Part shown: piece after piece, positions 2,288 to 58,845 of the stretch | How positions within the stretch are numbered: the first letter of the stretch is position 1 | Layout of the letters: every line of letters begins with the position of its first letter | DNA from: Erysipelotrichaceae bacterium | Lineage (GTDB): Bacteria > Bacillota_I > Bacilli_A > RFN20 > CAG-826 | Assembly: GCA_034932745.1 (NCBI GenBank) | Contig: JAYFOJ010000001.1 | Location: 69,451-133,450, forward strand | DNA: 64,000 bases | Direction of reading: 5' to 3' | Notes under the pieces: generated by a model | Told to the model about the DNA's origin: nothing | The model's database searches: none | What the model saw: the letters and a program-made list of their open reading frames with translations, nothing else | Made by a program: the position numbers and the translations under genes

Positions 2288-3787
2288 ATGGCCAAAAATA
2301 ATGGTGCGCTTCCGTACAATATTGATGCCGAGAAAGCTGTTCTTGGATCTGCTTTGCTCGCTCAGGAAGCCCTTTACAATGTTGTCAGTTCTCTAGAAAT
2401 CGATGATTTTTACGAAGGAAAACATCAAATTATCTACAAATCATTTATAAGTTTGATGAACCGCAAGACTCCGGTCGACGTTTTAACTGTCGCAACCGAA
2501 CTTGCAAATATGAAAGAACTTGAAAATATTGGCGGTGCTAATTATCTAAAAGAATTGACCGAATCGATGATTTCTTTTGGCAACCTTCAGTTTTATATCG
2601 ACATCGTTCTCGACCAATCCGTCATGAGAAGAATGTTATTAACTATACGAGACATCAATCGCGAATATGTTGAAGAAGATATCGAAAATCCAAACGATTT
2701 CATATTAAAAAGTGAAGTTAAATTTAAGGATTCAGTGGCGAGAAGACACATATCTTCATTTATTGATATGGAAACCGCCGCAAAGCGTGTGGAAGCGCAG
2801 TTAAACGATCAAAAGGAAATGTCTGTGTCCGATACTGACGTCATCGGCTTAAATACAGGATATCCGATGCTGAACGCCTTAACGCAAGGATTTCAAAAAG
2901 GCGAAATGACAATTATTGCCGCTCGTCCATCTGTTGGAAAAACAGCGTTAGCACTTAATTTTGCTTTCCAAGTTGCCACCAAAGAAAATGTTCCAGTTGC
3001 TATTTTTTCACTAGAAATGACCTCTGAGCTTTTAGTTAAGAGATTGATTGCCTCTGCTTCTTGCGTAAATTTAAAAAACATCAATATGGGACGTTTTTAT
3101 GGACAAGATAGGCAAAAAGTTGCGCAAGGAATAAAAGAGGTCGCAAATACAAAGATTTTTATCGATGATTCTCCAGGAATAAGATTAATGGATATCATCG
3201 CAAAAACACGCAAACTTCAATCTGCACACCCTGATTTAGGTCTTGTCATCATCGATTACCTCGGTCTTGTCCAATTAACACAAACTAATAGCCGAAATCC
3301 TGACTCAAGACAAGAGGAAGTGCGGAAGATATCACTAGCATTAAAAGCAATGGCTAAAGATTTAAAGTTACCAGTAGTTATTGTTTCGCAATTGTCCCGT
3401 GATGTTGAAAAACGAGATACAAAGAAACCAATGCTATCCGATTTGAGAGATTCTGGATCTATTGAACAAGATGCAGACGTCGTTATGCTTCTTTATAGAG
3501 AGGACTATTATTCCGACCAAAAGAAGAAAGAAATCGGTAATAAAAAGCCATCTCAATTATCTAGTAGCGATCGTTTTGAACTAGTTAGACAACAAAAAGA
3601 AAAAGAAGCCGGAGACACTCTTCCTGGCAATGCTTCATATGTCGAAGTAAACGTTGCTAAAAATAGAAACGGTGCCACTGGAAAAGTTCCACTATTCTTC
3701 TATAAAGATTTTGGCCGTTTTGATTCTCCTTCAAAAGCATGGGTAGACGCAATGAGAGAAGTCGAAGATAGCGTAGCGGCGGACTAA
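2288..3787 (+). CDS. dnaB: Replicative DNA helicase DnaB
   Basis: Walker A (ARPSVGKTALALNFA), Walker B (LVIIDYLGL), RecA-like C-terminal domain. Contains a roughly 30 aa Lys/Ser-rich insertion near the C-terminus. Confidence 0.95.
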   Translation: MAKNNGALPYNIDAEKAVLGSALLAQEALYNVVSSLEIDDFYEGKHQIIYKSFISLMNRKTPVDVLTVATELANMKELENIGGANYLKELTESMISFGNLQFYIDIVLDQSVMRRMLLTIRDINREYVEEDIENPNDFILKSEVKFKDSVARRHISSFIDMETAAKRVEAQLNDQKEMSVSDTDVIGLNTGYPMLNALTQGFQKGEMTIIAARPSVGKTALALNFAFQVATKENVPVAIFSLEMTSELLVKRLIASASCVNLKNINMGRFYGQDRQKVAQGIKEVANTKIFIDDSPGIRLMDIIAKTRKLQSAHPDLGLVIIDYLGLVQLTQTNSRNPDSRQEEVRKISLALKAMAKDLKLPVVIVSQLSRDVEKRDTKKPMLSDLRDSGSIEQDADVVMLLYREDYYSDQKKKEIGNKKPSQLSSSDRFELVRQQKEKEAGDTLPGNASYVEVNVAKNRNGATGKVPLFFYKDFGRFDSPSKAWVDAMREVEDSVAAD

Positions 3788-3788
3788 A

Positions 3789-4541
3789 ATGTATTTTAAT
3801 ATCATTGCAAGCGGTTCAAAAGGTAACGCCACTTTAGTAGTGGAAAAAGACACAATCATCCTAATCGATATGGGAGTTACTTTAACGCGTTTAGAAGCAG
3901 GCTTATCTGAAATTGGCAAGAAGGTTTCAGATATAACTGGTGCAATTATTACACACGATCATAGCGACCACACCGCAGGAATAAAGTTTTTACCTAAAAA
4001 CAAAATCTATGCTTTAGAAGGCACGATTACCGGAACGGGCTCGCATATTATAAAAATAAATGAACCATTTCTTGTAGGAGATATTACCATTACTCCAATT
4101 AAAATATCGCATGATGCAATAAATCCATGTGGTTTTGTTTTAGAATTTGGAAACGAAAAACTATCATATATCACCGATACTGGCTATGTTTTAAACGAGA
4201 CTTTGCCAATTCTTAAGAACCCGAGCTATTTAATTATTGAAAGCAACCATGATATTAAGATGTTGCTTAAAACGAATCGTCCGATGGAGCTAAAACAAAG
4301 AATTTTGAGCGATCATGGACATTTGTGCAATGAAGATTCTGCGATTGCAACATGTGGGATAATTGGCCCAAATACGAAAGAAGTCGTACTCGCACATATT
4401 TCTGAGGAGGCAAACACGCCAGAAATGGCATTAGAGGCATATCGCAAAATATTGAACTACTTTAATATCGATAGCGACTCATTCGTGTTAAAAGTTGCTT
4501 GCCAATGGAAATCTTTGCTCGGAGGGAACTATGAAAATTAA
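3789..4541 (+). CDS. MBL-fold metallo-hydrolase (YycJ/WalJ-like)
   Basis: HxHxDH motif (ITHDHSDHTAG). Size 250 aa. Confidence 0.8.
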   Translation: MYFNIIASGSKGNATLVVEKDTIILIDMGVTLTRLEAGLSEIGKKVSDITGAIITHDHSDHTAGIKFLPKNKIYALEGTITGTGSHIIKINEPFLVGDITITPIKISHDAINPCGFVLEFGNEKLSYITDTGYVLNETLPILKNPSYLIIESNHDIKMLLKTNRPMELKQRILSDHGHLCNEDSAIATCGIIGPNTKEVVLAHISEEANTPEMALEAYRKILNYFNIDSDSFVLKVACQWKSLLGGNYEN

Positions 4542-5010
4542 CCTTTTAGTAATCGGTAAAATTAAAGATTTATATCTAAAGCAAGGAATTGAAGAGTATT
4601 TAAAAAGACTTTCTAATTATTGCGAAGTTTTAGTGAAAGAATTTGATGATGAATCTATTGTCGATAAGCCCAGTAAAAAAGAAATCGAAATAGCTACAGA
4701 TAAAGAATGCGAAAGAGTGTTAAAAACGATTAAAAATACTGACTATGTTATAACTTTAGATCTAGGCAAGAAACAACTTGATAGTAAGGGATTTGCAGAG
4801 TTTTTATCGCAAAAGTTTAATACTTATGGTTCGCATTTAACATTTGTCATTGGTGGCTCATACGGTCTATCAAACAATCTAAAAAAACGCGCTAACGATA
4901 GCATTTCTCTTTCCGCTATGACTTTTACTCACCAGATGACTAGGCTTATTTTTCTTGAACAAGTTTATCGGGCGTTTAAAATATTGAATAATGAGGTATA
5001 CCACAAATGA
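4531..5010 (+). CDS. rlmH: 23S rRNA (pseudouridine1915-N3)-methyltransferase RlmH
   Basis: SPOUT RlmH-like sequence starting MKINLLVIGKIKD. GGAGGG Shine-Dalgarno at 4521-4526 precedes the ATG at 4531, so the track start at 4495 is probably too far upstream. Confidence 0.85.
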   Translation: MKINLLVIGKIKDLYLKQGIEEYLKRLSNYCEVLVKEFDDESIVDKPSKKEIEIATDKECERVLKTIKNTDYVITLDLGKKQLDSKGFAEFLSQKFNTYGSHLTFVIGGSYGLSNNLKKRANDSISLSAMTFTHQMTRLIFLEQVYRAFKILNNEVYHK

Positions 5011-5345
5011 AATATAAAGAATGGAACGAATTAAATATTATCGAAGACAAGAAGAACCCCTTTAGTACACTTTTTGAATATTCAAGTGGTGAAAGATTCT
5101 ATATTGAACCAGTGTTTTACACGAAGTTTAAGGCAATGCTTGACCATCACCCAGAAAAGAGAACTGACATAATTGAAGAAATGAAGAGAATTGTTTTAAA
5201 AAACAAGCGAGTTGTATTTACTGGGTCATTTGACTTTCCAAGAACCAACGCTCCTGACTATATATTTCTTGAACTAGAAGATATAACAAATCTCTTAAAA
5301 ATATTCGTCGAAGATAAATCTCGTGGATCCGATTACGGAGACTAA
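5007..5345 (+). CDS. hypothetical protein (112 aa), translationally coupled to rlmH (ATGA overlap)
   Basis: ORF whose ATG overlaps the rlmH TGA stop. I recognise no family. Confidence 0.5.
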   Translation: MKYKEWNELNIIEDKKNPFSTLFEYSSGERFYIEPVFYTKFKAMLDHHPEKRTDIIEEMKRIVLKNKRVVFTGSFDFPRTNAPDYIFLELEDITNLLKIFVEDKSRGSDYGD

Positions 5346-5350
5346 TAAAA

Positions 5351-5385
5351 AACCTCAGAATTTAACTGAGGTTTTCTTTTTGTTT
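5351..5385. terminator. bidirectional rho-independent terminator
   Basis: Stem aacctcag/ctgaggtt with a T-run after it and an A-run before it, located between convergent genes. Confidence 0.6.
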
Positions 5386-6465
5386 TTATCTACCGGTAGG
5401 TTTCAATTGTCTCATTGACAGCCACATCACGCGTACGCCAAGTAAGATAATAAAGAACATAACGGCGTATTGTTGCAATATAAATCCAAGAATTAAACTG
5501 AGAATAGCTGGTGAGACCATTGCCCATGAACTAATCTTTTCGCAATCGCCGAAAGTAAAGACGTGGAAAATGTTTTTCTTGCCTCTAGTGAGTAAGAACA
5601 CCATGAGGCCCATGAAAACGCCTAGGACTGCGTATATTCCTAAAGAAAGAAGACTTGAGAACAGTGTATTCTGATCTCTTAATGTTAAGAACGATTCATT
5701 GAAGAGATTGGTCCAGTTTTGAGTAACAGCTTTAACATATGCAGCATTAGCAAGATTTGTATGATTCTCCACATCAACTGGAATAATACTTTCTTCAAGA
5801 GCGAAGTGGCTTATTTTGGTGCCAACGGCAGTATGTAAATAATCACCGGTGACATTTCCATAAGCAGTTGTGGTATTTGGATTAAAGACGTATGCCGCTA
5901 GTCTTTCGGTTCCAAGAATAATAACGGTTGGAGAATAAAGACTAGGTGCGGTTGACTCTGAACTTTCTGATTGGACATATTTTGTTTGACTACCAATGAT
6001 GTACTGCCTTGCAATAACATCCTTAACAGAAGCGGTGAAGTCACTACCGGTTTCTTTAGTAAAATACACCAATAAATCATATTGGTCAGTATTTGAATTA
6101 ACGTATGCGTATTGGACGCCTGTTAAATCGTATGTGTAGTTTGTAAGCCACTTATCTTCAGTATCTTCCATATAGTGATGATCATTAATTTCTAGAGATA
6201 TTCCTTTTTCATACATGTCCATGGTGAAAGAAGTAATAGTGTTATCAAAGCTTCTCATCCCTTGAGAAAAGAATGACGATCCGGACAGATTAGCGTTGTA
6301 GACGGTTACTGGTATAACCGGGAGAGCGATTGATATCACGAACATTATCAATGCGACCCACCAGCGATTGTGTCTAGCGCCATCAATAGCGCGTTGGTTG
6401 CTAATTAAGCTACCAAATATGTTTTTTAAATTTTCTTTTGTTTCTGGTTTCATTTTCTTTTTCAT
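5386..6465 (-). CDS. hypothetical membrane protein (N-terminal TM, large extracytoplasmic domain, C-terminal TM bundle)
   Basis: Hydrophobic segments at the N- and C-termini. Family not recognised. Confidence 0.6.
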   Translation of the reverse strand: MKKKMKPETKENLKNIFGSLISNQRAIDGARHNRWWVALIMFVISIALPVIPVTVYNANLSGSSFFSQGMRSFDNTITSFTMDMYEKGISLEINDHHYMEDTEDKWLTNYTYDLTGVQYAYVNSNTDQYDLLVYFTKETGSDFTASVKDVIARQYIIGSQTKYVQSESSESTAPSLYSPTVIILGTERLAAYVFNPNTTTAYGNVTGDYLHTAVGTKISHFALEESIIPVDVENHTNLANAAYVKAVTQNWTNLFNESFLTLRDQNTLFSSLLSLGIYAVLGVFMGLMVFLLTRGKKNIFHVFTFGDCEKISSWAMVSPAILSLILGFILQQYAVMFFIILLGVRVMWLSMRQLKPTGR

Positions 6466-8049: not shown

Positions 8050-8445
8050 GGGGCTGAAATGGTTTCGACAGGGATGCTTGCCTTGCTTAGGCTGCAGTCG
8101 TGTGGTGACGTTATCACCAACCAAAAATAACTGACAACAGTTATATGAGCGCCAATCGCGCTCAAGTTTGCTGCGCTGCTTAATTAGCTTCCGTATATAG
8201 GAACCGACCAAAAGGCCGGACAGCACGGATTCTAGGGTTTAGCCTATTACGCCTAGAAAATCCGTCATACAAATAGGATAAGATCTAGCAGTTGACAAGT
8301 TAGCTAGGTACGAAAAATTGTTTGGCTCGCAATTCACGTTTTGTCGATATTGTCGGTGAATTGTTAAAACTCAATGTCGTCTAAACTGTAGACGCCTTTG
8401 ATGGGCCATCCTTGGACACGAGTTCAACTCTCGTCAGCTCCACCA
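8050..8445 (+). ncRNA. ssrA: tmRNA (transfer-messenger RNA, SsrA)
   Basis: 5' GGGGCTGAAATGGTTTCGACAGGG matches the canonical tmRNA 5' end. 3' end has a T-arm-like GAGTTCAACTC and CAGCTCC-ACCA pairing with the 5' GGGGCTG. An internal frame GCC AAT ... GCT GCT TAA gives a tag ending Ala-Ala-stop. Confidence 0.85.
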
Positions 8446-23358: not shown

Positions 23359-23474
23359 TTTACATATATTTTTCGCACACGCGTAAATTAGTATTTGATT
23401 TTGAATGGTCATCGTAGTATTTTATTAACAATCATTCAATGATTGATATTTTCGAAGGAAAGGAGAAAAAAAGA

Positions 23475-25859
23475 ATGAAAAAAACTACAAAGGTTTTAGG
23501 TCTTTTGGCTCTCGCTGGCACGTTAGCTGCATGCGGCAACCAAATGAAAACTGGTGTTATTCCTGATAGCGACCCATATTTTCCAGGAAAAGTTGTGAAG
23601 TATGAATACAACTCATTAGTCGCTACTGCTATCACCGAGTTGAACTACCTCAAAACACAAGCAGGTGCTTCCGCAACCCATTTTGCGAACTTTGAAGATG
23701 GACTTCTCTTACATAACAACTTTAGTGTTCTAGAAAAGAATCTCGCTACCAAAGTAACGCAAGTGAACTCTTACAAACAGTTCGACATCGACATTAGGTC
23801 AGGTGTTAAATGGGTTAGTTTTAACGGGGAACAATACGCTCCAGTTGTTAATGGTATTGCCACTCCACAATTCGTGTCTGCTAATGACTTCGTCTCGAGT
23901 GCAAAAGCAATCTTGACGGCGCCAAACGCTTCTGACACAGCGTACTTGATTTACAACTTCGTCGATGGTGCAATCGATTTCTACGAGGCAACATACCTCA
24001 TGGATAAAATTGCTAACGGAGGTTCTGCCTGGGCTCAATATAAGGACAATGCAAAATTTGCCACTAAATTGAACTCTCTCGTCAAAGAGAAAACAGGCAT
24101 CGATCCAAATCACACAGCCGACGAGGTCGACGACATTAAGAACTTTAAACAAGTTGGTATCAAAGTGATAACTGAACCAGGTGCTCAAGGTGGAGGATCG
24201 ATTCGATACACACTTAAGAACAACGCTGTTTATTTCCCAACATTATTAACTTACTCTTGCTATCTTCCAGTGAACGAATATTTCTTAAAGGAAATCAGAT
24301 TCACAAACTTTGGTTCCGCTCCAGACAAATTGCTCTATTGCGGACCATATAGATTGACGAAATCTAGTGAAGTTGAAATCGTTTATGAAAAGAACGAATC
24401 ATATTGGAACTTAGATAAGATTCACGTCGATAGAATTCACTATCAAGTCGCCCCTGCAGATGCAAGTTACGATTATACTCGTACAGAATTTGAACAAGGA
24501 CGTATCGATGGATTTACGATTAGTACAAAGGATACCGAAGGATGGCAAAAATACATTACTGGTCCTCAAGGTACCGGCACTATTCTCAATCCATACAACG
24601 CATATGTTAACTCTCGTGATTACGATTACATCGATTACGTTTACGGTTTAAACGTTAACGTCTATCGTGCTAGTAACACAAGAACTGGCACAGTCTCTGG
24701 CAAATCATATGCCACTACTGGATTTGGTGGTTCTACTGCAACAGTTAAGAACACCGAAAAAGCCCTTCTCATTAAAGAAGTTCGTGACTTAATCATCGCT
24801 TCTTTCGATATTAAGGAATACTGCAAGAGAAACAGTGATTTACCTGAATATCAAGCCCAATACATGATTAATACCTATGTTCCTCGTGGATTCGTTATGG
24901 ACGATAATGGTAACGACTATACAAAGACCCACTACTACGAAGAATATGGTCTTCACAACTTAGATAAATGTGCTAGTGACACCGATCCAACCAAAGTTGA
25001 TTTGAATAAAGTTGACGCAATTATTGGCCAAGGTCAATATGATGGCGTTCAAGTAGCTTACGACGATCTCGCTCCTTTAAGAGACAAGGCAACAGCAGCT
25101 ATTAACGCTTACAACGCCGATAATGCATCTTCTCCAATTACTCTTCCAATTAACCTTGAATTCTATACAATTTGGAACGATGACGAGACAAAAGCTATTG
25201 ATGAACCTCTCATCCTATCGATGAATCAACGCATCAATGGTATGCCAACAACTACAGCATTTACCAAAACCACTCCAAATCTCGTATTCTACGTTATCCC
25301 AACAAGTGATGTTACAACCTCTAACTATGAGACAGTTACTAACAATGGTAACTTCGACATTTGTGACACATGGGGTTGGGGACCAGACTACGGTGATCCA
25401 ATGTCTTATTTGAATACCTATGCAGTAGGCGGAGACTGGAGCAGTATCTTCGGCTTCGTCGGAACTGACTGCCCTAACTATCATTTAGATAACGGAACAT
25501 TGGTTCGCGATGAATCTTTACTCGGTGATTACACCGCAAAAGTTAATGAAGCAAGTAATGAGTATGAGGACCTTAATACTCGTTTCGATTACTTCGCACA
25601 AGCCGAGTACATGCTCATTAACGAATTAGGAATTTATAAACCACTCACCATGCAAGGTCAAGGACGTCAAGTATCTATCTCTTATGCAGCTGGATATGAA
25701 ACTCCACAAGGCGCTTATGGTCTATCGAGCAACCGTCTTGAAGGACTATGGGTAATGGTCGATAACATCCTTAGAACAGATCGTATGAAAGCGATAAAAG
25801 CTTTTGAAGATAACAAAGCAGCTTATGCAGCTGCACACGGTGCTATCAACATTTACTAA
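23475..25859 (+). CDS. oppA: oligopeptide ABC transporter substrate-binding lipoprotein
   Basis: Lipobox LAAC and SD AGGAGAAA. Large (794 aa) solute-binding protein placed upstream of oppBCDF. Confidence 0.8.
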   Translation: MKKTTKVLGLLALAGTLAACGNQMKTGVIPDSDPYFPGKVVKYEYNSLVATAITELNYLKTQAGASATHFANFEDGLLLHNNFSVLEKNLATKVTQVNSYKQFDIDIRSGVKWVSFNGEQYAPVVNGIATPQFVSANDFVSSAKAILTAPNASDTAYLIYNFVDGAIDFYEATYLMDKIANGGSAWAQYKDNAKFATKLNSLVKEKTGIDPNHTADEVDDIKNFKQVGIKVITEPGAQGGGSIRYTLKNNAVYFPTLLTYSCYLPVNEYFLKEIRFTNFGSAPDKLLYCGPYRLTKSSEVEIVYEKNESYWNLDKIHVDRIHYQVAPADASYDYTRTEFEQGRIDGFTISTKDTEGWQKYITGPQGTGTILNPYNAYVNSRDYDYIDYVYGLNVNVYRASNTRTGTVSGKSYATTGFGGSTATVKNTEKALLIKEVRDLIIASFDIKEYCKRNSDLPEYQAQYMINTYVPRGFVMDDNGNDYTKTHYYEEYGLHNLDKCASDTDPTKVDLNKVDAIIGQGQYDGVQVAYDDLAPLRDKATAAINAYNADNASSPITLPINLEFYTIWNDDETKAIDEPLILSMNQRINGMPTTTAFTKTTPNLVFYVIPTSDVTTSNYETVTNNGNFDICDTWGWGPDYGDPMSYLNTYAVGGDWSSIFGFVGTDCPNYHLDNGTLVRDESLLGDYTAKVNEASNEYEDLNTRFDYFAQAEYMLINELGIYKPLTMQGQGRQVSISYAAGYETPQGAYGLSSNRLEGLWVMVDNILRTDRMKAIKAFEDNKAAYAAAHGAINIY

Positions 25860-25890
25860 AAGTAAATAAAATGTTAGATTCATTCAACTC

Positions 25891-25923
25891 ATTAGGGTAG
25901 AGGCCTAACGACCTCTCCCTAAT
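25891..25923 (+). terminator. attenuator/terminator-like hairpin between oppA and oppB
   Basis: Imperfect stem attaggg(t)agagg/cctctccctaat with no strong T-run. It may modulate the oppA to oppBCDF expression ratio. Confidence 0.35.
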
Positions 25924-25947
25924 TTGTTGCATAATAGAGGAGGTAAA

Positions 25948-27120
25948 ATGGAAAGTTATTTAATTGGCTATACAATACTTGGACTTCTAGTATTATTTGT
26001 CATATTCTCGATATTGGTTAAGAAAAGAGTATTGTTTGGAAACACGCCTTCAATGCAGAAAATATTTGCGCATCCACTTCTCCATTATTCTCTAAGAAGA
26101 ATTGGCTCTGCTCTTATTTCTGTCACGCTTGCAATTCTTGTTACCTTCTTCTTAGTTAGATTAGCTCAACCGGCTGATCAAACATGCGTCCTTAAATTCT
26201 CTGGGCCACATGTCACCCCAGAATTATTTGAATTACAATGTAATGCTTGGAAAAAAGAAATGGGCTTCAGCGGCTCAATATTTGAACAATTGTGGCATTT
26301 CTTTTATTCAATCCTTCCATTTCCAAAAACATTATGTCGCGTAAGTCTAGATTCAATCACGTTGACATACACTGTTAGCGACTGCCGTAACTTTATTATC
26401 GATTTAGGTAAGATTTCTGATTTGCCAGGCGTTGAAGACGGAATTTACGTTATCGATTACATGCTCCCAAGAATGGCAATTTCATTCAAGATTGGCTTCA
26501 TCGCCACTTTAGTCGAGCTTGGCCTAGGATATCCACTTGGTGTTTTGATGGCTAAGTATAAAGATGGTGCTTTTGATAAAATCGGTCTTGGATATATTAT
26601 CTCGATCGACGCTATTCCTGGAGTTGCTTACTATTATATATGGATGGCCATTTTGTGTGGCCTTTTAGGCTTGCCAAGAGCATACTCCGAATCTAACTTC
26701 TTAAGCTGGTTGCCAGCGATTCTTACCATGGGCTTTACTGGTATGGCTGGTATTTCGATGTGGGTTAGACGTTTCATGGTCGACGAATTCACTTCAGACT
26801 ACGTAAAATTCGCTCGCGCTAAAGGATTAAGTGAAAATAGAATCATGTTCACTCACGTTTTAAGAAACGCGATTGTCCCACTTGTTAGGTCAATTCCTGC
26901 TGCTGTTATCGGAGCCCTTTTAGGAACATACTTCCTAGAAAATATTTATAGTATTAATGGTATTGGCGCTGCCCTTATTGTTGCCAACAGCACTAAGAAC
27001 GCAATGCTTTTACAAGCAATTATCATCATATCGGCATTCTTGTCGATTATTTCATATTTGTTAGGCGATATTGTCACTGCAATGGTTGACCCACGCGTCA
27101 GCTTTTCAGATGCAGACTAA
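25948..27120 (+). CDS. oppB: oligopeptide ABC transporter permease
   Basis: Binding-protein-dependent permease with an EAA-like loop (ARAKGLSENRIMFTHVLRNA). SD AGAGGAGG upstream. Confidence 0.85.
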   Translation: MESYLIGYTILGLLVLFVIFSILVKKRVLFGNTPSMQKIFAHPLLHYSLRRIGSALISVTLAILVTFFLVRLAQPADQTCVLKFSGPHVTPELFELQCNAWKKEMGFSGSIFEQLWHFFYSILPFPKTLCRVSLDSITLTYTVSDCRNFIIDLGKISDLPGVEDGIYVIDYMLPRMAISFKIGFIATLVELGLGYPLGVLMAKYKDGAFDKIGLGYIISIDAIPGVAYYYIWMAILCGLLGLPRAYSESNFLSWLPAILTMGFTGMAGISMWVRRFMVDEFTSDYVKFARAKGLSENRIMFTHVLRNAIVPLVRSIPAAVIGALLGTYFLENIYSINGIGAALIVANSTKNAMLLQAIIIISAFLSIISYLLGDIVTAMVDPRVSFSDAD

Positions 27121-27131
27121 GGAGGTGCGAC

Positions 27132-28193
27132 ATGGCAAAAGAAGAAAAAGATATCTTTCGCGAAGTAAGCGAAGAGACAGTTCCTGTTGAAGCAACAGTT
27201 GAACAAAATGTTGCTGATTTATTTAAAGTTGTCGGCACCACACCAGAAAACAGTGAAAAGGTCGACAGTGTTCCGTTTTCCTATTGGAGAATGACTTTCA
27301 AAGAATTATTTAAAAAACCATTTGTTATCGTTTGTTTGTTTTTAATTCTTATCGTCGTATTCCTTACTATTTTTGGACCTCTAATTAAGTTTTATCCACC
27401 TGTCATCGGACACGGTATCAACGTTTCGATGGGTGAGAAATTCTACGACCCGCCATATTACTACGGACCAGATGCTGATCACTGGTTTGGTATTTGTGGT
27501 ACTAATATGGGCACTTGGTTTAAAGGCACAGACATGTGGTCTTGTGTGTGGGCCGGCGCTCGTCTATCACTTCTTCTAGGAGTTGTCGTCGCTTTAATCG
27601 ACACAGTTTTAGGTATCGTAATCGGCGCTGCTTGGGGCTACTTTAAATGGCTAGACCCAATTCTAATTGAGTTCAGAAACTTTGTTAATAACATTCCAAC
27701 CCTTTTGCTCGACATTTTATTAATGCAAATGTTGATGAAATATATGTCTCAATACGGTTTTGTGATTATTGTTTTCTTATTATGCGCACTCGGTTGGTTA
27801 GGACTAGCTTCGTTTGTACGTAACCAAATCATTATTATTCGTAATCGCGAATATAATATCGCTTCGCAAACCCTTGGTTCATCTTCGTGGACCATGATTA
27901 GTCATAACCTACTTCCATATCTAATCTCCGTTATTGTTACGGTTGTTTCGACTGCAATTCCAGAAGCTATTTCGGCCGAAGTCGGATTAGCGTACTTCAA
28001 CCTTTCTTTTAAAATTTCAGATGGAGATATAACTCTAGGACAAGTTTTAACCCAGGCGGTCAAAGATAACGCCTGGATGTCACACCCGTATCTACTTTTA
28101 GGACCGATGATAGTGATGGTGCCGTTAACGATAGCATTCTTCTATCTAGGCCTCGCGATTTCGGACGCAACGGATCCGAAATCCCATAGGTAA
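27132..28193 (+). CDS. oppC: oligopeptide ABC transporter permease
   Basis: Second permease of the operon. Polytopic with an OppC-like C-terminal half. Confidence 0.85.
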   Translation: MAKEEKDIFREVSEETVPVEATVEQNVADLFKVVGTTPENSEKVDSVPFSYWRMTFKELFKKPFVIVCLFLILIVVFLTIFGPLIKFYPPVIGHGINVSMGEKFYDPPYYYGPDADHWFGICGTNMGTWFKGTDMWSCVWAGARLSLLLGVVVALIDTVLGIVIGAAWGYFKWLDPILIEFRNFVNNIPTLLLDILLMQMLMKYMSQYGFVIIVFLLCALGWLGLASFVRNQIIIIRNREYNIASQTLGSSSWTMISHNLLPYLISVIVTVVSTAIPEAISAEVGLAYFNLSFKISDGDITLGQVLTQAVKDNAWMSHPYLLLGPMIVMVPLTIAFFYLGLAISDATDPKSHR

Positions 28194-28207
28194 AGGAGGA
28201 TTTGATT

Positions 28208-29575
28208 ATGACATTGAGCAATAAAGATAAAAATGTAGTAATTCAAGTTCGCGACCTTTCACTTGGATTTACCACTCGTGGCAAAAAGATTCATGTCTTA
28301 AGAGACATCTCTCTTGATATTATTGAAGGCGAGACTCTTGCAATCGTTGGAGAATCTGGTTCAGGCAAATCAGTATTTACGAAGGCCTTTACAGGAATGT
28401 TAGACGCCAATGGTTTTATTAGTAGTGGATCAATTATCTTCCACGGTAAAGACTTAGTTAAGTTCAAAGAGAATAAAGAGTGGCTACAGATTCGTGGTCG
28501 TAAAATTGCAACTATCTTCCAAGATCCGATGACATCTTTAAATCCACTATTCACGATTGGATATCAGATTTCCGAAGTTTTAAGACTTCACTCAAAACCG
28601 ACAAAGAAACAATTAGAAAACTTTAAAATACGTAAAAAACAAGAGGATTTAGAAGAAGAATCCAAGATTCAAAAAATGACCAAGGTTCAAAAAACCGAAT
28701 ATCTTCTCAACAAGAAAAAAGAAAAAGAGAATCTTTTCAACACATTGTACGAGAAGGCTTTTAATGATTTAACTGAAAGCGAAAAGAAAAACCCAATAGC
28801 AAGATTTAAACTTCGTCGAGAAGTAGCGGTTGAAACCAAAGATGCTTGGATTGGTAAACCACGCGGAATGTCTCAACACGAAGCTAAAAAAGAAGCCATC
28901 AACCTTCTTCGCAAAGTTCAAATTCCAAATGCTGAAGATCGATATAATGATTACCCATTCCAATATTCTGGTGGTATGAGACAAAGGGTTGTCATCGCTA
29001 TTGCCTTAGCTTGCCGCCCAGAAGTCCTTATTTGTGATGAACCAACAACAGCGTTGGACGTCACTGTCCAATCTCAAATCATCCAACTCATTAAAGAGTT
29101 ACAAAAAGATTACCATTGGACCACTATTTTTATTACGCACGATTTGGGTGTCGTCGCCAATGTCGCCGATCGTATCGCCGTTATGTATGGTGGACAAATT
29201 GTTGAATACGGTACCGCAGAAGATATCTTCTATCGTCCTGCACATCCATATACTTGGGCGCTTTTATCCTCTTTGCCGCAACTAGGCAGTAAAGAAGAGC
29301 CTTTAAGTTTCATCCCAGGTAATCCGCCGTCATTTGCCTCTGAGATTATTGGAGATCCGTTTGCGGATCGTAATAGATATGCTTTGCGCATCGACTTTTT
29401 ATCTAACCCACCAATGTTTAAGATTAGTGAAACTCACTGCGCTAAAACATGGTTGTTAGACCCACGAGCACCACAAGTCGAAAAGCCAAAAGTAATCGTC
29501 GAGCTTCGCGAAAGAATGGCAAAAGCCGCCGATGAATTATTAAGACACGAAGGAGGAAACGCTAATGAAAAGTAG
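28208..29575 (+). CDS. oppD: oligopeptide ABC transporter ATP-binding protein with ~100 aa insertion
   Basis: Walker A (GESGSGKS), signature (YSGGMRQR), Walker B ([11 protein letters not shown]). GGAGGA SD 7 nt before the ATG at 28208. Confidence 0.9.
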
Positions 29576-30581
29576 TAAGAATAAAACTTACGTTCCAAAA
29601 GTGGATGAATTTGCGATTTCTCAACGTGAACACCCAGATAAAGACATCGTCAAAATGAAAGATGTAAAAATATCTTTTAAAATTGGTTCTCAAGAAAGAG
29701 TTATTATCAATCACTTGAACCTCAACATTAAACGCGGAGAGATTCTTGGATTAGTTGGAGAATCAGGATCAGGCAAAACCACTATTGGTCGTGCCATTAT
29801 TAGAATCAATCCTGTTAGAAGCGGTGAGATTCTTTATAACAATGTTCCGATTTCCGGCAAGATATCAAAAGATCGCGAAAGATTGCTTAAAACTAAAGTT
29901 CAGATGATATTTCAAGATCCATCTGCTTCCTTAAACGAAAGAGCAAATATCGACTATGTCATTTCCGAAGGCTTAAGAGCTTATCACCTATACGATTCGG
30001 AAGAGGATCGTATGGCAAAAGTAACCGCTATTTTGGAAAAGGTTGGATTAAGACCAGAATTCCTTTCTCGATATCCACATGAATTCTCTGGTGGTCAAAG
30101 ACAAAGAATCGGCATTGCTCGTTGCATGATTATGAAGCCAGAGTTCGTCATCGCTGACGAACCTATTTCTGCTCTTGATATGTCGATTCGTGCCCAAGTT
30201 CTGAACTTAATTAAGCAGTTCCAAAAAGAAGATAATTTAACTGTTTTATTTATCGCTCACGACTTATCTGTCGTTAAGTATATTTCCGACCGTATTGCAG
30301 TTATTTACGCTGGAAAGCTAGTCGAATTAGCTTCTGCCGAACGTTTATTCCAAGCTGCGCTTCATCCATATACGAAGTCATTGCTTTCTGCAGTTCCAAT
30401 CCCAGATCCACAAATCGAAAAGAAGAAGAAGATTGTTGTTTATGATCCATCTATTCATAACTATACAGAAACCAATGTTCCTGAATTTTTAGAAATAGAA
30501 CCAGGACATTTTGTCAGGGCGAGTAAACAAGAATTTGAAAAATACAAAAAAGAACTTAAAAGATTGGCAGGTGGAAAATAA
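29565..30581 (+). CDS. oppF: oligopeptide ABC transporter ATP-binding protein
   Basis: Walker A (GESGSGKT), signature (FSGGQRQR), Walker B ([10 protein letters not shown]). Confidence 0.9.
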
Positions 30582-38668: not shown

Positions 38669-39349
38669 ATGTCGAGAAGTTATAAAACATGGAACGATTT
38701 CTTTGAAAGTATCAAAGATAAGACATACTCAAAAGAGTTACATGAATTCTTAAATCAAGAATATTCTTGCCATGTTTGTTATCCGCCAAGACAAAAGGTG
38801 TTTAATGCATTTATGCTCACGCCTTTGAATAATGTCAAAGTTGTCATCATTGGGCAAGATCCATATCACGAACCTAATCAAGCTATGGGACTAGCTTTTT
38901 CTGTCCCTAATGGCATTGATTTACCTCCATCTCTAATTAATATTTATAAAGAAATAAGCAACGAATATAATGTGCCAGTATCTCGTAATGGAGATCTATC
39001 TTATTTAGCCACTCAAGGTGTGCTATTGCTCAATGCATCTTTGTCTGTAAGAAAAGCAGAACCGCTTTCACATAACATCCCTCAATATAAGGAGTTTTTA
39101 AAAGATGTATTGATGGTTTTAGATGGAATTGATAATCCAATGGTTTTTCTTTTGTGGGGCGGAAATGCAAGAAAACTCAAGGAATATGTTCATAATCCGA
39201 AACACCTAGTTTTAGAAAGTGTTCATCCTTCGCCTTTATCCGCCAATCGCGGCGGATGGTTTGGCAATAATCATTTCCGAAAAACGAACGAGTTTTTAAA
39301 AGCTAACGATATCGAAGAAATTAATTGGATAAAAAGTAGCAATAATTAA
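38669..39349 (+). CDS. ung: uracil-DNA glycosylase
   Basis: GQDPYH motif (VVIIGQDPYHEPNQAMGLAFSV) and an HPSPLS motif. Confidence 0.9.
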   Translation: MSRSYKTWNDFFESIKDKTYSKELHEFLNQEYSCHVCYPPRQKVFNAFMLTPLNNVKVVIIGQDPYHEPNQAMGLAFSVPNGIDLPPSLINIYKEISNEYNVPVSRNGDLSYLATQGVLLLNASLSVRKAEPLSHNIPQYKEFLKDVLMVLDGIDNPMVFLLWGGNARKLKEYVHNPKHLVLESVHPSPLSANRGGWFGNNHFRKTNEFLKANDIEEINWIKSSNN

Positions 39350-39371
39350 ACTCATATAATATAATAACCAC

Positions 39372-39455
39372 GGGAGCTAGGGGAACCTGGCTGAGAGGAG
39401 TGCTATTCCGCATTCGACCGGACCTGATCCAGGTAATGCTGGCGGAGGGAAATTT
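39372..39455 (+). promoter_or_regulatory. TPP (thiamine pyrophosphate) riboswitch aptamer
   Basis: CTGAGA at 39391-39396 and GGACCTGATCCAGGTAATGCTGGCGGAGGGAA at 39420-39451 match the conserved THI-box core (GAACCUGAUCUGGAUAAUGCCAGCGUAGGGAA). Confidence 0.85.
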
Positions 39456-39461
39456 TTTATT

Positions 39462-39490
39462 TCCTCCTCTTAGGTATGGAGGATTTTTTT
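39462..39490 (+). terminator. riboswitch expression platform: terminator / SD-sequestering hairpin
   Basis: tcctcc (39462-39467) pairs with the GGAGGA SD (39477-39482) and is followed by TTTTTTT. The alternative pairing of ggaggga (39444-39450) with ttcctcc (39461-39467) would act as an anti-terminator. Confidence 0.6.
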
Positions 39491-40453
39491 ATGAAAATCA
39501 AAGTTAGGAGTTTAGTTTTTACCTTAGCGAGTTTAATTGTGTTTATTGGCTTGCTATTTGTCCCGTATGTTTCTATTTCGGATGAACCGAAAAACGCGAT
39601 CGAATCCTTATTTAATGGCACTTTTGCCTGGATTTCGATTTTTAGTTTCCTGCCGTTTATTTTGTTTTTATTAGGAACTTTGTTTGTTGCCTTAAGACGG
39701 CTCAAAAAGGGATTATCCGCAGTAGCGACAATATTGTTCATGTTAAGCGGATTCCTATTTGTATTTGCTAACTCTTTCATCGCATATTCTTTAGATTTAG
39801 AAGCTAGTGAAGTTGTGCTTAATGCGGGGGCGATTATTTTATCGATTATAAGTTTCGTCTTTACGCTTTTAGCAAATGGCTTTATTTTTGATGAAAACCG
39901 TTTCTCGACGAGGGACATAGTGGAAAGCGCCATGCTAGTCGCTTTTGCGGTGGCATTAGATTTATCGGTTTTTAAATTTAAGATTGTTCCAAAAGGTGGG
40001 TCGATTTCCTTAGCGATGCTCCCGTTATTTATCGTTGCCTTAAGACAAGGTCCATTAAAGGGCTTCATCGTTACCGGTATCGTCTACGGATTTATTAACT
40101 GTCTAGTCGACGGATATGGTTTCGTTTGTTTCCCCTTCGATTACTTATTAGGATTTGGTTCAATTGCGATTCTTGGATTCTTCCGAAAATGGATTCTTCC
40201 ATCAGGCAAAATTGGCTATAACTTTAAAGGCATTTTGCTTCTAGTAATTGGAGTCATTCTTTCTGGAATGGCAAGAATTGTTGCTTCAGGAATTTCTGGT
40301 GTCGTTTTCTTCGGCCGAACACCATATGATTCTTTAATATATCAATTGCTATATATCCCAGCGTCAATCGGCTTATGTTTGGTAGCCCTTATTGCGCTAT
40401 ATATTCCTTTGCAAGTCATCAATAAAAGATACCCGCTAATTCCTAATCTTTAG
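39491..40453 (+). CDS. ThiT-like thiamine transporter (ECF S-component-like) with extra N-terminal 5-TM domain
   Basis: C-terminal half (LAMLPLFIVALRQGPLKGFIVTGIVYGFIN) resembles the ThiT/YuaJ family. Controlled by the TPP riboswitch. About 160 aa of extra membrane domain at the N-terminus. Confidence 0.7.
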   Translation: MKIKVRSLVFTLASLIVFIGLLFVPYVSISDEPKNAIESLFNGTFAWISIFSFLPFILFLLGTLFVALRRLKKGLSAVATILFMLSGFLFVFANSFIAYSLDLEASEVVLNAGAIILSIISFVFTLLANGFIFDENRFSTRDIVESAMLVAFAVALDLSVFKFKIVPKGGSISLAMLPLFIVALRQGPLKGFIVTGIVYGFINCLVDGYGFVCFPFDYLLGFGSIAILGFFRKWILPSGKIGYNFKGILLLVIGVILSGMARIVASGISGVVFFGRTPYDSLIYQLLYIPASIGLCLVALIALYIPLQVINKRYPLIPNL

Positions 40454-40498: not shown

Positions 40499-41506
40499 AT
40501 GAAAGAAAAGAAAAAAACAAGTAAGAAACCTGTTGAGGATGTTGTAAAAGAGGAACCGGCTAAAATTGAGCCAGCAATTCAAGAGCAACAGTTCGAGGTT
40601 AAAAAAGATGATACTGGTGTACCTTTTAACGAAAGAATAGAAAATGCGCGCAATGATCTTCTCGTCAAATATAAGAAGAACAAACAACTAAGCACAATAG
40701 TTACTTTTGTCGTCGTTGTCCTTGTTATTGCAGCTTTTATCTTGATGTACCAAGAATCTGAAGGATTTAAGATTACTGGTTATGTCGTCGCTGGCGCTAC
40801 ATTACTAGGAATGATTGCGTTTTATATCATTAACCGCAACCGTTTTCCAGATGCGACAAGAGACTATATTAATTTTATCAGCGCACAGTTCAACGGATTT
40901 GTTTTCGAAGATAGTGCCTATGAAAAACTTACAATGGATCCAAAAGATAAACTCGATCAAGGAGAAATTGCTGCCGATCGCGTTTATACCGGAATTGCTC
41001 GTTTAGGAAGCCGAAACATTGTACAAGGTATTTATTTGCATGAGCACTTCACTATCGCCGATGTTGCAGCCTATACTCGCGGTGATAAAAAACAAGAAGT
41101 GGCTGCGTTCGTTGGGAAGTACACTTCGTTTCCAAATAATCGAAAAATAGAAGGAAGAATCATTATCACCATCAAAGGCGAAAAAGAAATCGATCTGCCG
41201 ACCGATATTAGCGACTTAGTCAAAGTTGAAGAAGCGGAAAAAATGATGATTCTTGCGACTGAAGGATTAAATATTCGTGAAATTCTTGGCGAACCTTTTA
41301 TGAAGGCTATTGAGAAATTTAAAGTGAGTGAGAATCTCATGAATTTGAATATTGCAATTTGGGGCGGCCATACAGCGTTATATATGAGTTATAACGATGA
41401 GATGATGGTTTTACCATTTGAAAAGGCTTTTAATGAAGAACCAATCAAACAATATAAAGACGAACAAATAAAGCTTTTGAAAATTGTGTCTTTGCTCAAC
41501 AAATAG
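40499..41506 (+). CDS. hypothetical membrane-anchored protein (charged N-terminus, 2 TM, ~220 aa soluble C-terminal domain)
   Basis: ORF with GGAG SD. No family recognised. Confidence 0.6.
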   Translation: MKEKKKTSKKPVEDVVKEEPAKIEPAIQEQQFEVKKDDTGVPFNERIENARNDLLVKYKKNKQLSTIVTFVVVVLVIAAFILMYQESEGFKITGYVVAGATLLGMIAFYIINRNRFPDATRDYINFISAQFNGFVFEDSAYEKLTMDPKDKLDQGEIAADRVYTGIARLGSRNIVQGIYLHEHFTIADVAAYTRGDKKQEVAAFVGKYTSFPNNRKIEGRIIITIKGEKEIDLPTDISDLVKVEEAEKMMILATEGLNIREILGEPFMKAIEKFKVSENLMNLNIAIWGGHTALYMSYNDEMMVLPFEKAFNEEPIKQYKDEQIKLLKIVSLLNK

Positions 41507-47028: not shown

Positions 47029-47612
47029 CTCTTCTTTTCCTTTCCTTCTTCGTAAGTAATGTCGACGCCAGAGCCGTCGTCATTTGAATTATTACTAGGT
47101 TCATCGAGTAAAAAAGAATCTTTCTTTTCCTCTTTAGGAGCAACTATAACTTCTTCATTGATTTTGATCTCATGGATTTCTTGTTTATCAATTTCTGGTT
47201 CCTTTTTGACCTCTTCTTCGCCAGTAATAATACTATTTGGTACTGGTTGGACTTTTATGTGGTCCTCGTGAACTGGAACATTATTTTCATGCTCAAAAGT
47301 AAATGTCTCATTTTCTAATGGTTCTTTTAATGGCGCGAAATTGTTTTGAGGATTATTGCCTGGTTGGGCATTAGGTGGAAGAGGGTTGGAATTACCTAAA
47401 TTCATAATATCTAGTCTTCTTTTGGCCTCTTTGTCCTCTTCTAACTCTCCGAACATATTCTCGCCTTTGAAGAAAAGGATAATTGCCTTGATTCCAATGA
47501 CGATAAATGCCAGTAGACTAAACACAGCATAAATAGCCAGTCCTAGAAGTAAAACTGGTAGAACTAAAACATATAAAACGCCACGAGCGAAAGTTTTGAA
47601 AAAGTTAGCCAT
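47025..47612 (-). CDS. hypothetical single-pass membrane protein with disordered Pro/Asn/Glu/Lys-rich C-terminal region
   Basis: N-terminal TM followed by a low-complexity region (NSNPLPPNAQPGNNPQNN ... EEKKD). Confidence 0.6.
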   Translation of the reverse strand: MANFFKTFARGVLYVLVLPVLLLGLAIYAVFSLLAFIVIGIKAIILFFKGENMFGELEEDKEAKRRLDIMNLGNSNPLPPNAQPGNNPQNNFAPLKEPLENETFTFEHENNVPVHEDHIKVQPVPNSIITGEEEVKKEPEIDKQEIHEIKINEEVIVAPKEEKKDSFLLDEPSNNSNDDGSGVDITYEEGKEKKR

Positions 47613-48538
47613 TAATGTTTTCCTGCAGGATTAATTGTATCTTTCTTTTTGAGTTTGCTCAAACATATATTGCAAAATGCAATAATAGTCATTAATAAAG
47701 GGAAAATGCCAACTAAAAGAAACGCATATGTTTTACCGACTAAATTGTAACAGGAAGAAAAGATGAAAAACGTTATCAAAAGAGAGACACCCTCTAAGAT
47801 TAAAACCCATAGTTTTCTATCGATAAATGAACTGATTGCAAGATAGATTCCAAAGAATAACGAGATCATCAAAACAAAGTATGACCACTCGATAATAAAC
47901 GCCGCTAATAAACCAGTTAAAATAAGAGCGGTAACTGAACCGACAAGTGTTAAATAAAAGAACTTATTATTCTCGTGTAAAACAATTTGTAATTTTGGCA
48001 ACTCTTCCTTAATTACCATATAAGATAAAGTAGATTGAATGAGCGAAAGTAAGAAAATGACTGATGGGATTACTAAATACATCGCACTATTGTTTTGAAG
48101 GCCAAATACATTAAGGAAAAACGATATAATATCGAGTTCAAATATTAACTTGATAAGTGGTATAGAAATATAGGTAAAAACAACCTGAACTAATGTTGGT
48201 ACAAGAATAAGAAAAATGGCAGGGCATTTTTTCTTTGCAAGCACACCAAACAAGAAGCCAGAGATAATGGAAGGGATAACATAAAACAAGGTATCAGAAA
48301 AGTTCCATGCAACGACCGCTAAACATAGTATTGTTGTCGCAATGGCGTAGATAGGGAAAAACCGTTTTTTGCAATATAAAGTCACCGTTACGGAAGTTAA
48401 TGGAAGTACAAAAACTAGCAGTATGGTTAAAAAAGGTACCAAAGTAGAAAGAATCACGAAGACGACATTAATTGCCGCCATTAAAGCCATGAAAGTTAAA
48501 TTCTGAATAATCGTTTCATTTTTCTTGAATTCGACCAT
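47612..48538 (-). CDS. hypothetical polytopic membrane protein (~8 TM)
   Basis: First gene of a three-gene minus-strand operon with overlapping stop and start codons. Confidence 0.65.
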   Translation of the reverse strand: MVEFKKNETIIQNLTFMALMAAINVVFVILSTLVPFLTILLVFVLPLTSVTVTLYCKKRFFPIYAIATTILCLAVVAWNFSDTLFYVIPSIISGFLFGVLAKKKCPAIFLILVPTLVQVVFTYISIPLIKLIFELDIISFFLNVFGLQNNSAMYLVIPSVIFLLSLIQSTLSYMVIKEELPKLQIVLHENNKFFYLTLVGSVTALILTGLLAAFIIEWSYFVLMISLFFGIYLAISSFIDRKLWVLILEGVSLLITFFIFSSCYNLVGKTYAFLLVGIFPLLMTIIAFCNICLSKLKKKDTINPAGKH

Positions 48539-58606: not shown

Positions 58607-58684
58607 GCCCCGGTAACTCAGCCTGGATAGAGTATCACCCTCCTAAGGTGGAAGTCGGAAGTTCAAATCTCCCTCGGGGCGCCA
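58607..58684 (+). tRNA. tRNA-Arg (anticodon CCU)
   Basis: Cloverleaf with acceptor GCCCCGG / TCGGGGC, D-arm ACTCAGCCTGGATAGAGT, anticodon loop CUCCUAA, T-loop TTCAAAT and an encoded CCA. One A-C mismatch in the T-stem. Confidence 0.8.
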
Positions 58685-58769: not shown

Positions 58770-58845
58770 GGGCCTGTAGCTCACCTGGGAGAGCGCCTCC
58801 ATGGCATGGAGGAGGTAGAGGGTTCGATCCCCTTCAGGTCCACCA
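58770..58845 (+). tRNA. tRNA-Ala (anticodon GGC)
   Basis: Acceptor GGGCCTG/CAGGTCC carrying the G3:U70 Ala identity pair. D-arm GCTCACCTGGGAGAGC, anticodon loop AUGGCAU, T-arm GGTTCGATCC and an encoded CCA. Confidence 0.85.

Follow-up and report, generated by a model that had tools for sequence, protein, structure and literature searches.

A candidate P1-less thiamine pyrophosphate riboswitch upstream of a ThiT-type transporter fused to a tetraspan membrane module

Riboswitches for thiamine pyrophosphate (TPP), Rfam family RF00059, are familiar from the leaders of Escherichia coli thiM and of Bacillus subtilis tenA and thiC. They are built of two sensor arms, with the sequence CUGAGA in junction J3/2 and the elements ACCUGAUC, UAAU and GCG following one another in the P4–P5 arm, and they may carry an additional hairpin, P3a. 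They lie upstream of thiamine-related genes and act as OFF switches, by way of terminator-type hairpins that sequester the Shine–Dalgarno (SD) sequence. Helix P1 is usually regarded as the element that couples ligand binding to the expression platform. ThiT, or YuaJ, a transporter also found under TPP-riboswitch control, is the thiamine-specific S-component of a group II energy-coupling factor (ECF) system (structures 3RLB and 4TKR), and is a single domain of about 180–200 amino acids (aa) with six transmembrane (TM) helices. An Ala-x3-Ala motif in helix 1 of S-components serves for docking on EcfT; in the current view, docking makes S-components topple within the membrane; and ECF modules are normally encoded far from the S-component genes. 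Here we describe a locus in a 64-kb stretch of an Erysipelotrichaceae genome (contig JAYFOJ010000001.1; this whole stretch is ‘the window’, and positions refer to it) in which an aptamer of the TPP type precedes a gene for a ThiT-like protein. Both are of known kinds, a TPP OFF switch and a ThiT-type S-component, and each occurs here in a distinct, clade-wide form.

The RNA is almost certainly a TPP-type riboswitch that regulates the ThiT-like gene, and its sequence points to TPP itself as the ligand. It occupies the 141-nucleotide (nt) spacer between ung and the ATG at 39491, where an earlier note, made from the letters of the DNA, had placed a ‘textbook’ THI-box. The sequence features quoted there are all found at their places: CTGAGA (J3/2; Table 1), GGACCTGATCCAGGTAATGCTGGCGGAGGGAA at 39420–39451 and tcctcc at 39462–39467, followed by the SD and T7 (Table 1) and the ATG. 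A search of the intergenic stretch with RF00059 matches 39360–39467 at 51.7 bits (E 1.3e-9), somewhat below the gathering score of the family, 54.3 bits. The nucleotides that contact the ligand—CUGAGA in J3/2, ACCUGAUC, UAAU in L5 and GCG in J5/4—are present in the window and are invariant across 14 aligned leaders. The aptamer core ends 39 nt 5′ of the ThiT-type gene, and so stands in the 5′ leader of a thiamine-related gene, an arrangement that is repeated in 75 related loci.

These loci come from a comparison of 80, fetched from among 105 database homologues of the protein; all are from gut or rumen metagenome-assembled genomes (MAGs) labelled Bacilli, Erysipelotrichaceae, Coprobacillus or Enteromonas. 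From 13 of the sequences, the window among them, a covariance model of the aptamer core was built without P1. It scores 98.4 bits on the window, itself a training sequence, where it has a single match in the 64 kb, and it finds one aptamer directly 5′ of the gene in 75 of the 80 loci (58.6–102.7 bits). The 63 loci outside the training set yield one aptamer each (58.6–95.8 bits); of the five loci in which the model has no match, a contig end truncates four. A strict regular expression for the THI-box, tried on the same loci, found 13 of 80 and was set aside as too strict. In the core alignment, 96.2% of the cells in P2, P3, P3a, P4 and P5 are paired, a value that none of 500 shuffles reaches (86.4 ± 1.1% after shuffling); ten pairs are altered on both sides, and controls in which the helices were slid are 28–55% paired. 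The co-varying helices are P2, P3, P3a and P5; P4 is uninformative in this respect because it is invariant. One locus (L074, 4577–5564) has the aptamer, the SD and an ATG (MEKNDKK...) followed by a frame that is broken before the ThiT domain; this may reflect a shifted frame, a misassembly or a gene that is split, and an intact form of 331 aa exists (P0048).

The shortfall against RF00059 arises at three places: four of the five P1 pairs are non-canonical, J2/4 carries a 4-nt deletion, and P4 contains a G–G opposition. The earlier note had staked the riboswitch on a match above threshold. The match falls below it, and we attribute this to the Rfam model, which recovers one of 13 homologous aptamers at its gathering threshold (L014, 55.0 bits), rather than to the RNA being something else; the score is low because the RNA appears to lack P1. 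In comparison with thiM, the 3-base-pair (bp) CGG/CCG helix is the counterpart of P2 (GGGG/ACCC), not of P1. Where the 5′ strand of P1 would be there is a −10 box. Among the 14 aligned leaders, every one has TATAAT (TATGAT in three) 6–8 nt before GGGAG, and when the best −35/−10 pair is chosen in each of 74 distinct loci, the −10 hexamer precedes the first P2 pair by 5–10 nt in 68, where about 21% would be expected if placement were uniform within the scanned range. The −10 boxes across loci read TATAAT, TATACT or TAAACT, and the −35 boxes TTGACT, TTGATT or TTGAAT. Transcription would start about 7 nt past the −10 box, and therefore at P2 to within 2–3 nt, which in the window means approximately 39370–39372, the first nucleotides of P2. 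Wherever transcription starts, the sequences flanking P2 and P4 show no sign of complementarity: across the 74 loci the best contiguous pairing is 2.41 bp, against 2.48 ± 0.14 with permuted partners, and the duplex energy is −1.08 against −0.95 ± 0.16 kcal/mol. Of 68 distinct sequences, 51 have a contracted J2/4 of 2 nt and 16 one of 4 nt, where the Rfam consensus has 5. Taken together, these observations make it likely that the aptamer truly lacks P1; the earlier description holds as far as the TPP aptamer goes, and ‘textbook’ does not, P1 being missing and J2/4 short. A literature search for a P1-less TPP riboswitch found nothing relevant, which is not proof that none has been described.

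In many relatives the promoter extends into ung. The conserved Ile-Asp-Trp codons at the C-terminus of ung (ATTGAYTGG) supply TTGACT or TTGATT as the −35 box of thiT, about 30–45 nt upstream of the aptamer, so that part of the coding sequence also serves the promoter (L079, L021, L059, L034, L050 and many others). In the window, the corresponding codons, ATTAATTGG, are too far upstream to act as a −35.

Downstream of the aptamer, two competing pairings can be drawn, as the earlier note had proposed. Folded without constraint from the predicted start, the RNA reaches −46.6 kcal/mol, and strand alpha, GGAGGGAA, which comprises the 3′ strand of P4 and its tail, pairs with strand beta, UUUCCUCC. 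When the aptamer is enforced the energy is −38.6 kcal/mol, and beta pairs instead with the SD, GGAGGA, whose probability of being unpaired is then at most 0.07. A terminator scan calls this same hairpin (39465–39483, followed by TTTTTTT), which has the stem and U-run of an intrinsic terminator. Most loci have, one after another, a C-rich strand, a loop, an SD-like strand, a U-run and the AUG; a hairpin followed by a U-run was scored in 46–49 of 73, an approximate figure, the picker having chosen over-long arms in roughly 15 of the 73.

The alternative pairing has its own comparative support. The alpha of each locus pairs with its own downstream region at −12.04 kcal/mol, and the differing alphas of other loci at −10.77 ± 0.29; none of 200 permutations reaches the former value. 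By this test of the leader sequences, the alpha:beta pairing is under selection and co-varies from locus to locus. It takes the forms UAGGAA/UUCCUA, CGGAGG/CCUCCG and AGCGGA/UCCGCU, among others, and the UCCGC/GCGGA variants still match the aptamer strand. A control with shuffled beta strands (−8.8 against −7.0) was only weakly discriminating, because the shuffles retain the C/U-rich composition, and the cross-locus permutation replaced it. P4 reads CGGAGG in 52 of 68 sequences, with G in the position at which the Rfam consensus has U, and this substitution makes it a mimic of the SD. The pairing of tcctcc with the SD ahead of T7, the alternative use of the aptamer's GGAGGGA, and the OFF design that the earlier note drew from them are thus all borne out by the two folds, the terminator scan and the co-variation; control is presumably split between transcription and translation. 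Directly after the P4–P5 arm (39453–39459) there is also a run of at least four U residues; of 68 distinct loci, 43 have such a run within the first 14 nt past the aptamer. The run makes up the loop in the anti-sequestor hairpin, and could be a pause site that gives the ligand time to bind before the C-rich strand is made.

The regulated open reading frame (ORF) extends from 39491 to 40453 on the plus strand and encodes 320 aa, the length given earlier, its start preceded by the SD GGAGGA and T7. The ORF listing offers a form of 325 aa that begins at an ATG at 39476; this start lacks an SD and falls within the hairpin, and homologues align from the MKIK start of the 320-aa form. The C-terminal half is ThiT/YuaJ-like, as had been suspected. 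It matches PF09515 over aa 143–305 with 75 bits (cut-off 25.8), and the nearest solved folds to the AlphaFold2 model of the full-length protein (mean predicted local distance difference test, pLDDT, 88.9) are, by Foldseek, the ThiT structures 4tkr and 3rlb (probability 1.00, target template-modelling score 0.65), followed by RibU, FolT and BioY. Model and matches agree on the six-helix S-component fold. In helix 1, the motif E145-x-A147-x3-A151-x-A153 is conserved in the family and aligns with the TEIAFMAALAF segment of Lactococcus lactis ThiT. The thiamine-binding residues of the latter are reported (Erkens et al. 2011) to be W34, E84, H125, W133, Y146 and N151. In a profile alignment to 3rlb, E84-Y85, G129 and Y146 are kept, as D217-Y218, G270 and Y284; W133 is conservatively exchanged for F274; and W34, H125 and N151 are replaced, by G170, S266 and I289. 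The family has invariant positions of its own, namely a GGS motif, R185, D207 and R262, and NCBI names relatives ThiT.

The N-terminal part is an additional membrane domain. The earlier note was right that canonical ThiT has no such domain, and overestimated its size: hydropathy and the model give four TM helices in 138 aa rather than about five in 160. Modelled alone, this module has a pLDDT of 91.5. An extension of at least 90 aa is present in 87 of the 105 homologues, and an iterated profile joins all 87, with the caveat that profiles of this kind can be inflated by TM-rich sequences. The module is poorly conserved; the mean column identity is 26%, and Met1 is the sole invariant residue. 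No Pfam or NCBIfam family covers aa 1–138, and matches below threshold to SLATT_5, DUF4064, Claudin_2 (E 0.0016, in one relative) and CbiQ were taken as hydrophobic noise or, at most, hints. Nor is the module a second copy of ThiT, an origin that the earlier note had proposed checking: BLASTP of the N-terminal half against the C-terminal half finds no similarity (E 1.8), and internal duplication was rejected.

An exhaustive profile search with the module retrieved 381 proteins. Those of greater length are fusions to ThiT; among the matches listed, about half are free-standing, 140–180 aa long and without a Pfam family. Five loci with such free-standing relatives (L082–L086, at about 2700–6450 in each) carry three or four tandem paralogues of 146–181 aa. 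They are from spore-forming Firmicutes and adjoin genes for rubrerythrin, a SpoU methylase and SpoIIR; within these five loci no link to ECF or vitamin genes was seen. In a close relative, L039 (4294–4966), ung and the same P1-less leader are followed by a short-form ThiT of 182 aa with a TTG start. The module is therefore dispensable, and was either lost or never gained in this relative. We think it most likely that the tetraspan is an accessory structural partner in cis rather than a binding or catalytic part, and have low confidence in any more specific role. A literature search for long or fused ThiT proteins turned up nothing relevant, and is likewise not proof of absence.

Table 1. Positions in the window of the promoter, riboswitch, transporter domains and adjoining frames
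Feature	Positions	Strand	Basis
ung (uracil-DNA glycosylase), upstream neighbour	38669..39349	+	Pfam UDG, 55.6 bits
Predicted sigma-A promoter: −35 TAGCAA (39337-42), 17-nt spacer, perfect −10 TATAAT (39360-65)	39337..39365	+	Alignment of leaders
TPP aptamer core without P1	39371..39451	+	RF00059 match, P1-free model, co-variation
Aptamer P2	39371-73/39418-20	+	Core model
Aptamer P3	39376-81/39386-91	+	Core model
Aptamer J3/2, CUGAGA	39391-96	+	Core model
Aptamer P3a	39398-403/39410-15	+	Core model
Aptamer J2/4, GA	39421-22	+	Core model
Aptamer P4	39423-25/39446-48	+	Core model
Aptamer P5	39429-32/39439-42	+	Core model
Switching strand alpha, GGAGGGAA (3′ strand of P4 and 3′ tail), SD-like	39445..39452	+	Pairs with 39460-67 in the free minimum-energy fold
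Strand beta, UUUCCUCC (anti-SD; 5′ arm of terminator-like hairpin)	39460..39467	+	Folding; like element in most loci
SD GGAGGA (39478-83), also 3′ arm of the hairpin; then U7 (39484-90), also SD–AUG spacer	39478..39490	+	Terminator scan, folding
Tetraspan module, aa 1-138: TM1, beta-hairpin, short helix, TM2, TM3, strand, TM4	39491..39904	+	Hydropathy, AlphaFold2
ThiT/YuaJ-type ECF S-component domain, aa 139-320, six helices, and stop codon	39905..40453	+	Pfam, Foldseek, profile alignment
Antisense ORF, 203 aa, most likely no gene	39457..40068	−	Wholly within conserved thiT and its leader; best Pfam E 0.14

We propose that the locus works as follows. A sigma-A promoter overlapping the end of ung would start transcription at, or within 2–3 nt of, the first P2 pair, giving an RNA with two sensor arms (P2–P3–P3a and P4–P5) joined by a 2-nt J2/4 and without P1. 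When TPP is scarce, alpha would pair with beta; the SD would be largely accessible, no terminator hairpin would form, and the transporter would be made. When TPP is bound, the ligand would bridge both arms and lock P4, leaving beta to pair with the SD. The resulting hairpin, directly ahead of U7 and the AUG, would block ribosome binding, probably terminate transcription too, and so switch the gene OFF. The product is a protein of ten TM helices whose divergent ThiT-type S-component most likely imports thiamine, powered, by analogy, by a shared EcfAA′T module encoded elsewhere; ahead of the S-component stands the four-helix tetraspan, which is poorly conserved and which at least one close relative lacks. 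Direct observations are the aptamer and its co-variation, the want of P1 complementarity, the promoter-like positions of the boxes, the co-varying alternative pairing, and the protein's fold and domain architecture; where transcription begins, that TPP is the ligand, how control divides between transcription and translation, that thiamine is carried, that an ECF module is needed and what the tetraspan does are inferred. As a whole, we regard this mechanism, a P1-less OFF switch over a tetraspan-fused ThiT, as a good deal more probable than any other.

Several observations weigh against the RNA half of the proposal. At its gathering threshold RF00059 is absent from the whole window, in which Rfam reports only a tmRNA and two tRNAs. 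The −35 of the window, TAGCAA, is weak, and a simple promoter scan makes no call at the site because only three of its six positions match; the physical absence of the 5′ strand of P1 depends in turn on the predicted start. Enforcing the aptamer costs 8 kcal/mol relative to the free fold, and the SD is only partly open in the free ensemble; control must therefore come from the energy of ligand binding or from co-transcriptional kinetics. The hairpin, finally, is short (6 bp, with a loop of 7–10 nt), and the efficiency of termination is uncertain. If transcription began further upstream, for instance in ung and continued through it, this RNA would be a canonical TPP riboswitch with a weak, AU-rich P1 formed by 39363–67 (AAUAA) and 39457–61 (UUAUU). 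The weakness of the window's promoter suits this explanation, the 5-bp pairing can be drawn by eye, and a few relatives (L065, L011, L062 and L047) have 5–6 bp of flank pairing. Against it, flank pairing over the 74 loci equals that of the permuted control; the candidate helix is 4–7 unpaired nt away from P2 and P4 and overlaps the invariant TATAAT; the −10 and −35 boxes are conserved in position; and J2/4 is contracted, as expected if the three-way junction needs no closing. We consider a conventional P1 distinctly improbable, and a core that begins at P2 the better account.

The identity of the cargo and the role of the tetraspan call for similar caution. TIGR02357 matches at 60 bits, far below its equivalog cut-off of 108.45. 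With W34, H125 and N151 replaced, the identity of the substrate is not secure. Together with the family's own invariant GGS, R185, D207 and R262, these features would suit a pocket that differs from that of characterized ThiT and takes a related compound—hydroxymethylpyrimidine (HMP), the thiazole moiety, or a phosphorylated or otherwise modified thiamine—in place of thiamine. Yet PF09515 is well above threshold, the ThiT structures rank ahead of RibU, FolT and BioY, the pocket retains its acidic residue and two tyrosines, and relatives bear the name ThiT. Control by a TPP riboswitch fits any thiamine-related cargo and does not discriminate. A cargo other than thiamine therefore seems to us unlikely, if the least unlikely of the alternatives, and thiamine the natural candidate. 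Genes for EcfA, EcfA′ and EcfT are another matter: there are none in the 64 kb, in which the only ABC (ATP-binding cassette) ATPases are of the Opp type (28202–30581), and none adjoin thiT in the relatives examined. One might suppose that the tetraspan has freed the S-component from the ECF module: built into the protein, it would be the static scaffold relative to which the ThiT domain moves, and the protein would act as a solitary transporter. The fusion is fixed in the whole clade, and BioY is a known case of a solitary S-component (cited in PMC11109136). Against this stand the conserved alanine motif of helix 1, which is the EcfT-docking motif; the close short-form relative L039, which lacks the module; and the module's weak conservation, without an invariant residue. 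The absence of ECF genes from 64 kb says little, because ECF modules are usually encoded at a distance. An S-component that works alone is improbable on this evidence, and one energized by a distant EcfAA′T is to be preferred. Least credible of all is that the N-terminal part is an artefact of annotation, thiT truly starting near aa 139 and the stretch before it being either a small gene of its own or a leader that is not translated. Gene callers do disagree about the start (325 versus 320 aa), and both free-standing homologues of the module and the short-form ThiT exist. But the frame is open and uninterrupted, with its SD and AUG (39478–39493) right after the riboswitch; the same fused frame occurs in 87 homologues, conserved at the protein level from 85% down to 20%; the domain boundary has no internal SD or start; and AlphaFold2 models the whole chain with confidence. 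A genuine fusion is what these data describe.

For annotation, the consequence is that a whole clade of Bacilli/Erysipelotrichales from gut and rumen has TPP riboswitches whose scores reach or fall just short of the Rfam gathering threshold, and that standard pipelines will therefore mostly miss them; the P1-free model recovers them at 59–103 bits. An aptamer that starts at P2, has a J2/4 of 2 nt and switches through P4 would be a compact test of how much of the three-way junction TPP sensing needs. A four-TM bundle fused to helix 1 constrains models of how S-components topple, and the same tetraspan family also occurs free-standing, uncharacterized. The strongest joint reading would be that nature has produced a two-arm aptamer that binds TPP and regulates without P1, via P4, and coupled it to a tetraspan that acts as scaffold or auxiliary and changes S-component function. 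We think this a long shot. Were it true, the tetraspan might, for instance, permit uptake without EcfAA′T or gate the toppling movement, and the locus would be a self-contained thiamine-uptake cassette in small-genome gut Bacilli.

The window has a G+C content of 36.5% and uses TGA as a stop codon; it is syntenic with an Erysipelotrichaceae MAG over at least 20 kb, and the order ung–riboswitch–thiT is kept in the relatives L087 and L088. The minus-strand ORF opposite thiT, which the earlier note judged spurious, has no family match and is contained entirely in a gene for which 105 homologues are known, in agreement with that judgement. Just 3′ of thiT is a gene of 335 aa (40499–41506, +) with a Lys/Glu-rich N-terminus, two TM helices and a sub-threshold match to DUF6320; L088, from an Erysipelotrichaceae MAG, has a 329-aa gene without Pfam matches at the same position, and the gene is thus conserved and uncharacterized. 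Further away are a tmRNA gene (8050–8445, +; 133 bits), two tRNA genes (58607–58681 and 58770–58842, both +), all three ordinary features, and an oligopeptide-type ABC transporter operon (23439–30581, +) that encodes a large lipoprotein-like binding protein, two permeases and two oligo_HPY ATPases. The operon is followed by a gene for a 689-aa protein, whose counterpart in the related MAG carries leucine-rich repeats. A multi-pass membrane protein of 308 aa (47612–48538, −), with DUF2232 below threshold (22.6 versus 27.8 bits), heads a minus-strand cluster of three genes for membrane proteins without family assignment.

How, then, does this locus compare with the systems from which we began? 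With RF00059 the RNA shares both sensor arms and their ligand-contacting sequences, the P3a hairpin, the position ahead of a thiamine-related gene, and the OFF logic. It differs in that P1 is absent, the promoter abutting P2 and the flanks being non-complementary; in a J2/4 of 2 nt rather than about 5; in the G for U in P4 (CGGAGG) that creates the SD mimic; in that the competing strand would invade P4, not P1; and in clade scores at or below the gathering threshold, which one of 13 passes. The HMP pyrophosphate (HMP-PP) riboswitch, or thiS motif, which Atilho et al. reportedly described in 2019, is another riboswitch of the thiamine pathway, with a minimal aptamer embedded in a terminator. 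It resembles the present RNA in its pathway, in having nucleotides common to aptamer and terminator, and in its reduction of the canonical TPP architecture; the present RNA differs in retaining the full P2–P5 and the pyrophosphate-sensor arm, with P1 alone missing. The tetraspan module may resemble the claudin, TARP and LHFPL tetraspans, which are auxiliary membrane subunits of eukaryotes, and E. coli LetA (YebS) and DUOXA1, in fold only; the claudin-type fold is a bundle of four helices whose loops 1 and 2 contribute an extracellular beta-sheet. The module differs from the claudin family in sequence: the sole Pfam match for aa 1–138 is to SLATT_5, below threshold, and its outer loop, PYVSISDEPKNAIESLFNGTFAW, has no cysteine and lacks the W-GLW-C-C signature. 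With ThiT/YuaJ, lastly, the protein shares the six-helix fold, the helix-1 motif of the Ala-x3-Ala type, control by a TPP riboswitch, and the acidic residue and tyrosines at E84-Y85 and Y146. It is set apart by its 320 aa and ten TM helices (four plus six) in place of a single six-helix domain, by the replacement of W34, H125 and N151, by GGS, R and D motifs of its own, and by a score below the NCBIfam equivalog cut-off.

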